Assembly (NCBI RefSeq): GCF_056746865.1
Contig: NZ_CM163382.1
Direction: 5' to 3' (one strand)
DNA: 64,000 nt
Of the stretch, positions 29,453 through 62,911 are shown piece by piece; the first letter of the stretch is position 1, and every line of letters begins with the position of its first letter. The notes below the pieces were generated by a model. That model was not told where the DNA came from and ran no database searches. It worked only from the letters and a program-made list of their open reading frames with translations. Position numbers and translations under genes: made by a program.

Positions 29453-29526
29453 TGCTTTTCTTCCCGAGTTGAATTGAGGACGTGATGTCCCTGTGAGTCA
29501 TTTTTTAAAACTAACTTGCCTGGAGT

Positions 29527-30138
<612 letters not shown>

Positions 30139-30519
30139 TTACAGGTACATTCAGTTTCTTTAGTAAATCGGAAGTAAATAAGATACGTAGCACATATCAA
30201 TATAGGTTAAACGAGATTAAGTTTTAATTATTTTCGATTGGGCTTAAATTTATGTTTTTTTCCTGATGAGTGTCAATATGTGAACAGAAAAGGAATTCCA
30301 TGGTTAAGTCAATATTTACAAAAAATGAAAATATTGCTTTTTTGATAAGAAGAAAAAGACATTCAGTTTCATAAGGTTATTGGCAATATAACGTTCAATT
30401 CTTACTTGCATTTTATATTAGCCAGGAACTTTGCCCTGAGGTGTTAGGAATAGTCTTAATGTGTTGTGTAATGGACTAGTAAAAAAACAAGTTTAAATGA
30501 TAAGAAATAGAATATAAAA

Positions 30520-30747
30520 CTATAATGAGTCATAATTAAAGATGATTTGCCAATCAGTAAAGTGTTTTAATGGATTAACATGCCGCACAAAATGGTTATG
30601 GGTGTTCATTCCAATAAGTGATGAAAAATTAAACAGGTGTAAGTACGTCATCTGTCCGGTAAGCCCCCTAAGAGCCAAATTAAGTGAAGTTAAACGAAGA
30701 CTGCCAGTTGTCACAGGAACGATGGCCTCTTTGCCAGGGCACTGCAT
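30520..30747 (-). CDS. hypothetical 75 aa protein (position and length match ykgL of K-12 from memory)
   Basis: ORF only; no strong RBS or domain signal. Confidence 0.3.
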   Translation of the reverse strand: MQCPGKEAIVPVTTGSLRLTSLNLALRGLTGQMTYLHLFNFSSLIGMNTHNHFVRHVNPLKHFTDWQIIFNYDSL

Positions 30748-31153
30748 TCAGTCATCTGTGCGCGTTACTCTAACTGGCACTCGAACGTCGGCGATGGGGT
30801 TACCGGTGGATCAGGCCGTTCCTGTGGCGTAAACGTTTTTATGTCAGTACCAACAGATTTACCACATTTATCATCTTAACCGTTTGAGTGTAAATGCAGG
30901 CTGCGTCGCAAAGGGAGGAAACTGAGTGGCGTGTTCAGTCTAAAAGAGAGTTGATGCCAGCATACAGGGCGCACCTGGTCAACAAGTCAACATTAATATA
31001 ATGGAATATTCGGAGAGAAACGTCAGGCAGTTGACCTTAAATGAACAGGAAGATACATCCCCAGGAAAATTAATGCTGGTGTAATAAATACACCAACATT
31101 AATCCGGTCTGATTATTAATCAGACAAATATCGTTAATTCGTCGAATTTTGAA

Positions 31154-31294
31154 TCAACGTTTTTTCTTACGACCCTGAACGGCCTTAAAACGTGGATTAG
31201 ATTTACAAATCACATATAGCCGTCCTTTTCGCTTCACAATCTGACAGTCTGGATGGCGTTCTTTTGCGGTACGCAGAGAGTTAAGGACTTTCAT
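31154..31294 (-). CDS. ykgO: 50S ribosomal protein L36 paralog (zinc-independent type)
   Basis: 46 aa [46 protein letters not shown] read directly; absent from the ORF track (<60 aa); start overlaps ykgM stop (ATGA). Confidence 0.85.
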
Positions 31295-31557
31295 CATGCC
31301 CCCTTTTTCGTGCTAACAAAACGACCAAAACGTTGGGTGAATCGTGCAACATTTCCTTCTGATGCCACTGTTCTCAGCTTCCCTGTATAGAACGGGTGCG
31401 ATTTAGAAGAGACATCAATTGTCACGTACGGATACGTTACGCCATCCAGCTCAATCTCACGGTCTGTTTTGATAGTCGAGCCGATTTTAAAGTACTCATC
31501 AACACTGGTGTCATGGAACACCACAGTACGATACTCAGGATGGATATTGGGTTTCAT
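31294..31557 (-). CDS. ykgM: 50S ribosomal protein L31 type B
   Basis: 87 aa ([23 protein letters not shown]...); no Cys zinc ribbon, consistent with the zinc-independent paralog. Confidence 0.9.
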
Positions 31558-31568
31558 CATTTTTACCT

Positions 31569-31586
31569 GTTATGTTATAACATAAC
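31569..31586. promoter_or_regulatory. Zur box upstream of ykgM
   Basis: perfect 18 bp palindrome GTTATGTTATAACATAAC immediately upstream of the ykgM start. Confidence 0.7.
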
Positions 31587-31921
31587 CGTAAAGATACATG
31601 CTCATCCGGATCATTTCAACACCCAATCCCTGTGACCATTTGTGGTATGTGGAATTTCCTCAACGGGGAAGTCTGGCATTGTTAACAGCCATTGGCTGAC
31701 GCTCCCATAAACGCCTGGATGAGTGATTGATGATGGTTTCGCTGAGAGTATGGATTTTTCGAGAATGGAGGTTATCTCCACTTTACTGGCCGATGATTTA
31801 TCGCAGTATGATTGATTACCTGACAGCGTGTATTCCTCTCCCACGGATATAATAATTACTTACAAAAAGGGAGAGGATGCATATTTTAAATATCACTGAA
31901 GTGAACAGTTTATTGCCGTTA

Positions 31922-32023
31922 TTAATAGAAATGGAAAAATAAATAGGCGTATTCTACAATTGCGACAAAAACAACGATATTAATCAGTTTATGACTGATT
32001 TGTTGTACTTTATTCTCTTTCAT
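31922..32023 (-). CDS. ykgR: small membrane protein YkgR (33 aa)
   Basis: MKENKVQQISHKLINIVVFVAIVEYAYLFFHFY read from the minus strand; hydrophobic core; not in the ORF track. Confidence 0.6.
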   Translation of the reverse strand: MKENKVQQISHKLINIVVFVAIVEYAYLFFHFY

Positions 32024-32496
32024 TGGTACTTCCTCGCTTTAAAAAAGAGTGCACTTCGTAAGTGCCCTTATATAAATAACGAGTTTGGTCAACCAATTTT
32101 TTGACATGTATCACAAATTTGAATAGATGTATTACATCAACTATCTTTTATTGCCCCAACGTCATTGATATATGTCGCCTGAAGTCAGTTCCGGGAATGA
32201 GTCTGATCTCAAGACAGGCCCAGTCCTGGCGTTGATTAGCGCTGAGGAGCATATCGCATCTCATCATAATGTCGTATCTCCTGGGGTGTTATACAAGATA
32301 TCGTTGTTGGTGACCTGGGAGAGGAATTGAGTTCTATTAAACCGTCAACTATGCCGGATACATACTGGATTACACAGCAGGCACGCCTTATGAGAGAACG
32401 TGCCGCAGTGACGGGTTAATTATCTGAAAGAATTTGCGAGGCTGTATCGGTTACTCATTGGTTTGATAGTTTTACACTCGGGAGAGTAATAGATAT

Positions 32497-33639
32497 TTAA
32501 TCCATTAACGGAAACCAGCCAGTTCCTTTCGATGCCTGAATTTGATCCCATAGTTTATCCGGAATGGTTAATTCAGGAACAAGTTGTGGATTAAGGGTTG
32601 TTTGAATTTCATGGCTTCTACCTGATTCAGCTAAAGTCACCCATTCTGGATTTATCACCAGCCCTTTACCGATCGCAACAAGTGGCAGGCCAGTGGAAAT
32701 TGCTTCTTGAGCCTGAGACGGTGTGCGTATTTTACCTGCAGCGATTACCGGCACTCTGCCTGCAATATGATTTAAAATCAATTCAATAGTTCGGGGGCCA
32801 TTTGGCGACTCAACAGGGTAGCTATCGTTAATACTGACCAGCGAGGTATGTATATACGAAATACCGGATGCAATGAGCCGATCAAGGAGTTTATAAGTAT
32901 CCTCTATCCGCAGCCCCCCTGTTGCAGATTCTTCAGGAGATATTCTGTAACCGATGGCAAAGGGCTTTGTCGCATATTCATAGACTACATTTTTTACTTC
33001 CTGTAATACGGCCAGCGGGAATCGCATACGTCTTTCGAGATCTCCTCCCCATCGGTCATTACGCTGGTTAAATAGAGGGGAGAAGAAATTCTGTAGAAGG
33101 AATCCGTGCGCACCATGAAGTTCAATGCCATCAAAACCTGCTTTAATCGCCCTTTTTGTGACATCTCCGAATGCTCTAATGGTTTCCTGAATTTCGTTTT
33201 CAGTCATTTCCCTGCTTTGTACCACTCTCTTCATAAAGTCACCAGATTTTACGCTTGATGCGCTGGCACTAATAACATCGTTATTTGGTACAAGCTCCGG
33301 GATGGCTTTATTACCGGCGTGGAAAATCTGCAAAATAGCCGGAGCACCGCCACTTTTGGCTGCCGCTGCTAACTTTTCAAGGCTGTTAATGAAACGGTCG
33401 TCATACGCGGCAAATTCATGAGTAAACCCAATGCCGCTTGGCGTGACATAGGTACATCCTGTTATTACTAAACCAACATTTTGTGAGCGACGTTTATAAA
33501 ATTCGAGTTCTTGCTCAGAGATGGTTCCATCAGGATTCGCTGACCAGGTCGTCATAGGAGCCATAACGATACGATTACGTAGCTTTATTTTTTCTGTCAG
33601 CATAAAAGGAGAAAACAATGATGGGTGTTTATTTGTCAT
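32497..33639 (-). CDS. NADH:flavin oxidoreductase, Old Yellow Enzyme family
   Basis: 380 aa; OYE-like TIM-barrel signature (RIVMAPM, LQIFHAGN, GFDGIELHGAHGFLL); GAGG RBS. Confidence 0.85.
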   Translation of the reverse strand: MTNKHPSLFSPFMLTEKIKLRNRIVMAPMTTWSANPDGTISEQELEFYKRRSQNVGLVITGCTYVTPSGIGFTHEFAAYDDRFINSLEKLAAAAKSGGAPAILQIFHAGNKAIPELVPNNDVISASASSVKSGDFMKRVVQSREMTENEIQETIRAFGDVTKRAIKAGFDGIELHGAHGFLLQNFFSPLFNQRNDRWGGDLERRMRFPLAVLQEVKNVVYEYATKPFAIGYRISPEESATGGLRIEDTYKLLDRLIASGISYIHTSLVSINDSYPVESPNGPRTIELILNHIAGRVPVIAAGKIRTPSQAQEAISTGLPLVAIGKGLVINPEWVTLAESGRSHEIQTTLNPQLVPELTIPDKLWDQIQASKGTGWFPLMD

Positions 33640-50532: not shown

Positions 50533-51059
50533 ATAAAACCGCCAGCAATCGGAGCAAAGATAATCCGCATTCCGGGAGTTGTGAGCCTTTCAACTATTTC
50601 TATTTCCAACGGTGGTTTGGGCTTTATATATTTTTTTCTGATGGACTCTAGCTCAGTTTTTAAATAAAAATGCAAACTAAATTGCTTCAATTAAATAAAG
50701 TGCCGATTATTACTTGATACGTAATTATTGTTGGTGATTTTGTTTGTACACCATCAGTGTATATCTCAATAACCCCTGAATAAGTAGCACTGAATAGGTA
50801 TAAGGGATGTAGCCTTTTTAAATGGATTTCTTATGCTAAAAATGATCGTCGATTTCCCTATAAAATGTGAGCGATGCCGAAAGAAATAAAATTAGTTATT
50901 GCATTTGAAGTTTAGATGAAAGATTATCATTTGTCATACAAATGAGGGGTGGTATGTTACTAGCCAATTAAAAAAGAACGCCATATTTATTGATGATTGA
51001 TCCCCCGGAAGGGGGGAACCATCGGGCATAAATGGGTATGAAGTAATGGAGTATTAGTT

Positions 51060-61822: not shown

Positions 61823-62911
61823 ATGAATTCATGTGATTTTCGTGTTTTTCTGCAAGAGTTCGGTACAACGGTTCATTTGTCATTGCCTGGTAGCGTATCC
61901 GAGAAAGAACGACTGCTACTCAAGCTGCTGATGCAGGGAATGTCTGTAACAGAAATATCACAGTACAGAAATCGCAGTGCAAAGACCATTTCACATCAAA
62001 AGAAACAGCTCTTTGAGAAACTGGGGATTCAGAGCGATATTACTTTCTGGCGGGATATTTTCTTTCAGTACAATCCGGAGATCATATCCGCCACGGGTAA
62101 TAATAGTCACAAATATATTAATGATAATCACTATCACCATATCGTCACGCCTGAAGCCATCAGTCTGGCGTTGGAAAACCATGAGTTTAAACCGTGGATC
62201 CAACCGGTTTTCTGCGCGCAGACTGGGGTACTGACGGGCTGTGAGGTGCTTGTCCGCTGGGAACATCCACAAACGGGAATTATCCCACCGGATCAGTTTA
62301 TTCCTCTGGCGGAGTCATCTGGTCTTATCGTCATAATGACTCGCCAGTTGATGAAACAGACTGCGGATATTCTGATGCCGGTAAAACATTTGCTGCCGGA
62401 TAATTTCCATATTGGCATCAACGTCTCGGCGGGTTGTTTTTTGGCCGCGGGATTTGAAAAAGAATGCCTGAACCTGGTCAAGAAATTAGGAAACGATAAA
62501 ATCAAACTGGTTCTCGAGCTAACGGAACGTAACCCTATTCCGGTAACGCCAGAAGCCAGAGCGATATTTGACAGCCTTCATCAGCACAACATTACCTTTG
62601 CGCTGGATGACTTTGGTACGGGTTATGCGACCTATCGTTACTTGCAGGCGTTCCCGGTCGATTTTATTAAGATCGATAAGTCATTTGTGCAAATGGCGAG
62701 CGTGGACGAAATATCCGGTCATATTGTGGACAATATTGTCGAACTGGCGCGTAAGCCTGGTCTGAGTATCGTGGCGGAAGGGGTAGAAACCCAGGAGCAG
62801 GCGGATTTAATGATCGGCAAAGGCGTTCACTTTTTGCAGGGCTATTTGTACTCTCCGCCAGTACCGGGTAATAAATTTATCTCTGAATGGGTAATGAAAG
62901 CAGGTGGTTGA
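61823..62911 (+). CDS. pdeL: c-di-GMP phosphodiesterase PdeL (LuxR HTH plus EAL domain)
   Basis: 362 aa from MNSCDF...; N-terminal LuxR-type HTH; EAL-domain motifs (ELTE, DDFGTGYA). Confidence 0.9.
   Translation: MNSCDFRVFLQEFGTTVHLSLPGSVSEKERLLLKLLMQGMSVTEISQYRNRSAKTISHQKKQLFEKLGIQSDITFWRDIFFQYNPEIISATGNNSHKYINDNHYHHIVTPEAISLALENHEFKPWIQPVFCAQTGVLTGCEVLVRWEHPQTGIIPPDQFIPLAESSGLIVIMTRQLMKQTADILMPVKHLLPDNFHIGINVSAGCFLAAGFEKECLNLVKKLGNDKIKLVLELTERNPIPVTPEARAIFDSLHQHNITFALDDFGTGYATYRYLQAFPVDFIKIDKSFVQMASVDEISGHIVDNIVELARKPGLSIVAEGVETQEQADLMIGKGVHFLQGYLYSPPVPGNKFISEWVMKAGG

Follow-up and report, generated by a model that had tools for sequence, protein, structure and literature searches.

The region between positions 31154 and 32023 of the window, by which we mean the whole 64,000-nucleotide (64-kb) stretch of DNA that was analysed, contains two very short reading frames and, close to them, a perfect palindrome. 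It raises the questions of whether such short frames are genes, which regulator would read the palindrome, and how far along the DNA its control extends. The region is almost certainly the known Escherichia coli ykgR / ykgM-ykgO locus in a non-K-12 strain, and in it ykgM and ykgO (ykgMO) constitute a two-gene operon controlled by Zur. As judged from their alignments, the products of ykgM and ykgO are paralogues of the ribosomal proteins L31 and L36 without the full set of zinc-binding ligands. The operon, the Zur operator, the ribosomal paralogue switch, and YkgR have all been published and annotated previously, and nothing in the locus is new. Its worth is that of a sanity check, in which a reading of the raw sequence recovered two genes lying below the length cut-off together with a genuine operator. 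The three genes are the following.

31154..31294, minus strand: ykgO, type B (zinc-independent) ribosomal protein L36 (bL36B), 46 aa and stop codon
31294..31557, minus strand: ykgM, type B ribosomal protein L31 (bL31B), 87 aa and stop codon
31922..32023, minus strand: ykgR, small membrane protein, 33 aa

Open reading frames (ORFs) of at least 20 aa were listed on the minus strand between 30900 and 32400, and three clean frames of 88, 47, and 33 aa were found. The annotated start is the second ATG for both ykgM and ykgO: the mechanical ORF of ykgM has 88 aa, runs over 31294..31560, and begins at an ATG at 31560, and the ORF listed for ykgO has 47 aa (31154..31297), with the annotated 46-aa protein beginning at 31294..31292. 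The initial annotation had read ykgO (46 aa) and ykgR (33 aa) cleanly from the minus strand, and their coordinates are confirmed. It had also called both genes missing from the ORF track; both do lie below its cut-off, but their absence is an effect of the length cut-off only, and ykgO, ykgM, and ykgR are annotated at exactly these places in identical genomes as well as in K-12 MG1655. An ORF cut-off of 50–60 aa conceals real genes. The 2.2-kb region is 100% identical in many complete E. coli chromosomes, such as that of strain 118UI, and is found in 5091 of 5426 complete E. coli genomes. Alignment to K-12 reveals no frameshift in the small ORFs, with identity at 46 of 46 residues for YkgO, 87 of 87 for YkgM, and 32 of 33 for YkgR. 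The nucleotide differences in ykgO are synonymous only, as are all four in ykgM. Two further minus-strand ORFs, one of 77 aa in the spacer between ykgM and ykgR (31611..31844) and one of 75 aa at 30520..30747, which is not ykgL, returned nothing in family searches and were treated as chance ORFs.

With lengths of 46 and 33 aa, and with many ORFs of similar size in the six-frame list of this AT-rich region, the small frames themselves might be taken for chance ORFs rather than genes. The probability of this is practically nil. Both proteins exceed the cut-offs of curated equivalog/exception models: YkgO scores 91 bits against the NCBIfam model for type B L36, NF002021 (cut-off 70), and YkgR scores 74.9 bits against the NCBIfam equivalog NF041474 (cut-off 40). 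YkgO is, in addition, kept at all of the 80 species loci described below and is among the chains of a solved ribosome structure, and YkgR is kept in E. albertii with an intact Shine–Dalgarno sequence and has been detected experimentally (PMC7549839).

With the small frames accepted as genes, the family assignment of the two ribosomal paralogues is equally firm. YkgM scores 122.8 bits against the NCBIfam model for type B L31, NF002462 (cut-off 86), and 87.1 bits against Pfam PF01197 (Ribosomal_L31; cut-off 27), and YkgO scores 68.6 bits against Pfam PF00444 (Ribosomal_L36; cut-off 26.1). Residues 1–68 of YkgM are identical to a chain of the E. coli ribosome structure PDB 6I7V, and residues 1–45 of YkgO are identical to a 45-residue chain of the same entry. 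The initial annotation had spoken of zinc-free ribosomal paralogs, a description that holds fully for YkgM and in part for YkgO. In an alignment to K-12 RpmE, the L31 ligands C16, C18, C37, and C40 are replaced by T, V, S, and S in YkgM, which by this alignment is plainly a C- form, all four cysteine ligands of the CxC...CxxC arrangement having been replaced. The L36 ligands C11, C14, C27, and H33 correspond to H14, C17, C30, and F36 in YkgO; the full C-C-C-H tetrad is gone, but H14, C17, and C30 remain. Because these three potential ligands are retained, the zinc-free status of YkgO, which sequence cannot prove, is taken from the literature (PMC9825181). For a protein described as zinc-free, this nearly invariant partial ligand set of H14, C17, and C30 is strikingly conserved; H14 is found in 79 of the 80 YkgO orthologues (loci L005–L084), and so is F36 at the fourth position.

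The two ribosomal genes are joined very tightly. At the junction GGGGGCATGATGAAA, the two genes meet in the arrangement TGATG: the last base of the ykgM stop codon TGA (31296..31294) is also the first base of the annotated ykgO ATG (31294..31292). This 1-nt overlap bears out the earlier statement that the start of ykgO overlaps the stop of ykgM. Five synonymous substitutions distinguish the operon from its K-12 counterpart, and one of them, G>A at 31297, changes the last sense codon of ykgM from GCG to GCA and creates an extra in-frame ATG for ykgO with an ATGA overlap; it is because of this added ATG that the mechanical ORF of ykgO has 47 rather than 46 aa. A GGGGG Shine–Dalgarno sequence for ykgO lies inside the 3' end of ykgM. 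In other species, the gap between the two genes is 2–21 nt or they overlap as here, and ykgM is followed by ykgO in 80 of 80 loci. This geometry suggests that translation of ykgO is coupled to that of ykgM.

The question of which regulator controls these genes turns on the palindrome that precedes ykgM.

31569..31586, no strand assigned: Zur operator, 18-bp perfect palindrome GTTATGTTATAACATAAC, lying within a 20-bp Zur-box pattern at 31568..31587

The element GTTATGTTATAACATAAC is its own reverse complement and has no other match in the 64-kb window at up to three mismatches (0.02 expected by chance). Only 11 nt separate it from the ykgM start codon, so that the earlier report of an 18-bp perfect palindrome just upstream of this gene is accurate. 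An inverted-repeat finder with a 14-bp minimum returned no hits over 30900..32500, which is an effect of that parameter, as the palindrome has 9-bp arms and the terminator stem described below contains a wobble pair. From the crystal structure of Zur bound to DNA, the E. coli Zur box has been described as an 18-bp inverted repeat, RNNNYRNNR*YNNYRNNNY, and by a second definition as the 20-bp pattern TGWNAYRWTATAWYRTNWCA (Gilston et al. 2014; PMC4219657). The palindrome agrees with the skeleton RNNNYRNNRYNNYRNNNY at 18 of 18 positions; the dyad of the skeleton coincides with the centre of the palindrome, and the central TATA is present. Against the 20-bp IUPAC pattern TGWNAYRWTATAWYRTNWCA it agrees at 19 of 20 positions, the single mismatch being at the outermost base, and it is the sole match to this pattern in the window at up to two mismatches.

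The initial annotation had proposed a weight matrix scan for Zur boxes. A symmetrised matrix was built from three K-12 operators only (znuA/C, zinT, and pliG), with the ykgM site excluded, and on this matrix the site at 31568..31587 scores 24.6 bits, close to the 25.7–27.9 bits of the training sites themselves. It is by far the best site in the 64-kb window, the next independent one scoring 11.3 bits at position 50917. Secondary scores of about 12 bits appear at shifts of +5 and -5 bp (31563..31592) because of the GTTAT GTTAT / ATAAC ATAAC periodicity of the site, and these shifted registers may be the overlapping pseudosites discussed by Gilston et al. The RNNNYRNNRYNNYRNNNY skeleton and the central TATA are held in common with the znuA/znuC, zinT, and pliG operators, and the ykgM site alone among the E. 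coli Zur operators is a perfect 18-bp palindrome. This unique symmetry is in keeping with the published comparison of the four known Zur operators, in which that of L31p ranks as the most palindromic (PMC4219657). The same operator is, together with that of zinT, one of the two tightest Zur binders, with an apparent Kd of 0.025e-18 M2, and it confers 560-fold repression in vivo (PMC4219657). The 18-bp palindrome of this strain is identical to the K-12 operator for which Zur binding and repression have been published (PMC4219657).

Boxes of the Fur family are all AT-rich inverted repeats, and the spacer has been flagged as H-NS-associated by Shimada et al. (PMC3946193); on these grounds, the palindrome could be assigned not to Zur but to Fur or some other regulator that belongs to the Fur family or binds AT-rich DNA. 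The 19-bp Fur consensus, however, has no match at the palindrome at up to three mismatches, the central TATA and the RNNNY spacing seen here are specific to E. coli Zur (PMC4219657), and the matrix score resembles those of validated Zur operators. A regulator other than Zur is accordingly given a negligible probability. The zinc-responsive control that had been proposed for ykgM and ykgO is supported by the motif fit, the matrix score, the footprint, and the published binding in K-12, and no evidence contrary to a zinc-regulated ykgMO operon was found. More generally, perfect AT-rich palindromes beside a start codon merit a test as regulator sites.

The ykgMO promoter was predicted by a consensus scan.

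31591..31619, minus strand: predicted sigma-70 promoter of ykgMO, with the -35 hexamer TTGAAA at 31619..31614, a 17-nt spacer, and the -10 hexamer TATCTT at 31596..31591

The same hexamers and spacing, TTGAAA-17-TATCTT, are listed for the ykgMO promoter by Shimada et al. 2014 (PMC3946193). The Zur box is separated by 4 nt from the predicted -10 hexamer TATCTT on its upstream side and by 11 nt from the annotated ykgM ATG on its downstream side. It should therefore cover the predicted transcription start site, the position of the operator relative to +1 being itself a prediction, and an operator placed over the start site is the classic arrangement of a repressor. Between the -10 hexamer and the Zur box, position 31588 is C in this strain and T in K-12.

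Conservation of this arrangement was followed with a YkgM scan at one genome per species, which gave 80 loci from Escherichia, Citrobacter, Kluyvera, Enterobacter, Klebsiella, Salmonella, Serratia, Photorhabdus, Brenneria, Vibrio, and Pseudoalteromonas. All 80 loci have a Zur-box-like site with 0–1 skeleton mismatches, placed 10–30 nt ahead of the ykgM ATG. With the dyad as the anchor of the alignment, the 18-bp box carries 1.59 bits per column, compared with 0.37 and 0.45 in the two flanks, and the -35 position is likewise marked by a GTTGA block conserved across species. A perfect palindrome is found only in Escherichia, Samsonia, and Brenneria among the 80 loci; elsewhere the right arm drifts (ACATAAC to ACAAAAC, ACAATAC, or ACATATT) and the left arm GTTATGT stays fixed. 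The most conserved part of the box is the central TTATAA. Within E. coli, 5059 of 5426 genomes contain the ykgMO promoter/operator region, and the most divergent copy sampled keeps the exact palindrome intact. Thirteen of 5073 matches to the ykgM promoter/operator region are on records labelled as plasmids. One of the 80 loci, L060 (CACSKA010000001.1), is titled Chryseobacterium sp. 18061, and the ykgM-ykgO pair on it, which has a Zur box, is of the enterobacterial type; the locus is nearly the same as the Citrobacter locus L054 from the same project, and the record is probably mislabelled or contaminated.

These comparisons also bear on a different reading of the palindrome, according to which it is chiefly the hairpin formed in RNA that counts: located at the 5' end of the ykgMO transcript, such a structure would influence mRNA stability or translation, and the site would not be primarily a protein operator. 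A start about 7 nt past the -10 hexamer would indeed place most of the palindrome in the transcript, where it folds as a 7-bp stem beside the Shine–Dalgarno sequence. This fold is, however, unremarkable (z = -1.5; 17 of 200 shuffled sequences fold as well), and across the 80 species the right-arm changes break the pairing without compensation. The would-be loop, TTATAA, is the most conserved part of all, as fits a site contacted by protein. Uncompensated drift of the right arm together with a most conserved TTATAA speaks for a protein site rather than for an RNA hairpin under selection, and binding of Zur to this very sequence has been published (PMC4219657). We consider it very unlikely that the palindrome is primarily an RNA element. 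A scan of 29500..33500 against Rfam at E ≤ 1 gave no hit to any known RNA family.

A strong predicted fold lies beyond the end of ykgO.

31066..31125, minus strand: two stem-loops 3' of the ykgO stop codon, the second with a stem of about 15–17 bp followed by UUUU

The pair folds at -40.9 kcal/mol with z = -5.83, and none of 200 shuffled sequences folds as well. The second stem-loop is likely the terminator of ykgMO, its U-run being short at 4 U. The stem-loops fall within the 3' end of the ykgL frame. This frame lies on the plus strand at 30894..31119, convergent with ykgO, and is frameshifted and split into 30894..31001 and 31001..31084; it is annotated as a pseudogene in an identical genome and is intact in K-12 and in strain AH62.

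Taken in order, these elements suggest how the operon would work. Transcription of ykgMO would be driven from the sigma-70 promoter TTGAAA-17-TATCTT. When zinc is sufficient, two zinc-loaded Zur dimers would occupy the 18-bp palindrome and, lying over the start-site region, would block transcription, presumably by occlusion of RNA polymerase. When zinc is scarce, Zur would depart and ykgMO would be transcribed; translation of ykgO would probably follow that of ykgM through the TGATG overlap and the GGGGG Shine–Dalgarno sequence, and the pair of stem-loops after ykgO would probably end the transcript. YkgM and YkgO would then take the places of L31 and L36 in ribosomes, and YkgM would additionally repress translation of rpmE. 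The last steps correspond to a published cascade in which Zur acts on L31p and L31p in turn on L31, with L31p repressing rpmE translation (PMC9825181), and both YkgM and YkgO chains are contained in the solved E. coli ribosome PDB 6I7V. Zur binding, the repression of about 560-fold, ribosome incorporation, and repression of L31 are all taken from the literature on the identical K-12 sequence. The same logic, with Zur repressing zinc-free paralogues until zinc becomes limiting, is known from the Zur-regulated C- ribosomal paralogue switches of other bacteria, such as Bacillus subtilis and Mycobacterium (PMC9825181); the paralogue sets and box sequences of those switches differ from the ones here.

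It remains to place ykgR, the third gene of the locus. It is preceded by a GAGGA Shine–Dalgarno sequence 7 nt upstream of its ATG, and its product has a hydrophobic C-terminal segment (residues 12–31) with a mean Kyte–Doolittle value of 1.9, forming a single hydrophobic helix. Compared with K-12 YkgR (b4671), both proteins have 33 aa, and the one difference is L30F in this strain. K-12 YkgR is a small membrane protein that has been detected, cross-linked to SRP, and found to be SRP-dependent, with post-translational recognition by SRP (PMC7549839), and YkgR is also covered by a review (PMC12648545). Downstream of the gene, a fold at 31800..31930 is not significant (z = -1.8).

As ykgR is on the same strand as ykgM, 361 bp upstream of it, and as its adjacency to ykgMO is conserved within Escherichia, it might be thought to belong to the same Zur-controlled unit, either co-transcribed or co-regulated with ykgMO. 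The chance that it does is very slim. The gene lies upstream of both the ykgMO promoter and the operator, and no second Zur-like site was found in its vicinity: apart from the ykgM operator, the highest-scoring site in the window is the 11.3-bit one at 50917. Their distributions also differ: ykgMO and its box occur in 80 species, but among the same 80 loci orthologues of ykgR in the same position are found at just two Escherichia loci, those of E. albertii and of a second Escherichia lineage. Because ykgR is upstream of the ykgMO promoter and without a Zur-like site, there is no basis for giving it a part in the zinc response. We conclude that ykgR is a separate upstream gene, outside the control of the ykgMO operator, and that its 33-aa product is a membrane protein with a single helix.

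Upstream of this separate gene, a hairpin resembling a terminator, GCACTTACGAAGTGC with a T6 run after it, is seen on the minus strand at 32042..32065 and ends about 18 nt before the ykgR ATG, which places it between a possible TTGGTT-18-TATAAG promoter and the ykgR Shine–Dalgarno sequence. In E. albertii, the T-run and a similarly shaped stem are kept, with one change from A-T to G-C. The fold is weak in three Escherichia lineages (z = -1.9, -1.0, and -0.5), and the hairpin may be a leader element or the terminator of the upstream gene. Adjacency and conservation are the support for three further ideas, namely a role of ykgR in the zinc or ribosome switch, a leader attenuator at 32042..32065, and binding of a metal by H14, C17, and C30 of YkgO; all of these we hold to be highly improbable.

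The K-12 locus provides the closest comparison for the whole region. The K-12 pair ykgM-ykgO is L31p/L36p (b0296 and b4506), and it shares with the present strain the same proteins, the same 18-bp operator, the same promoter hexamers, the same stop/start overlap, and the same order of ykgL, ykgO-ykgM, and ykgR. The two strains differ at the edges of the locus: ykgL is frameshifted here and intact in K-12, and an intact flavin oxidoreductase lies upstream of ykgR here, whereas K-12 has a ykgP remnant. In this strain the gene encodes an NADH-dependent flavin oxidoreductase of 380 aa on the minus strand at 32497..33639; at the corresponding position K-12 carries a 90-bp ykgP pseudogene remnant, followed by the eaeH pseudogene and IS3. 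Since K-12 has the remnant where the oxidoreductase is intact here, its locus is the degraded version. Elsewhere in the window, ATTAATGATAATCACTATC at 62117..62135 on the plus strand agrees with 16 of the 19 positions of the Fur-box consensus (0.01 matches expected by chance) and lies inside the coding region of pdeL (yahA).
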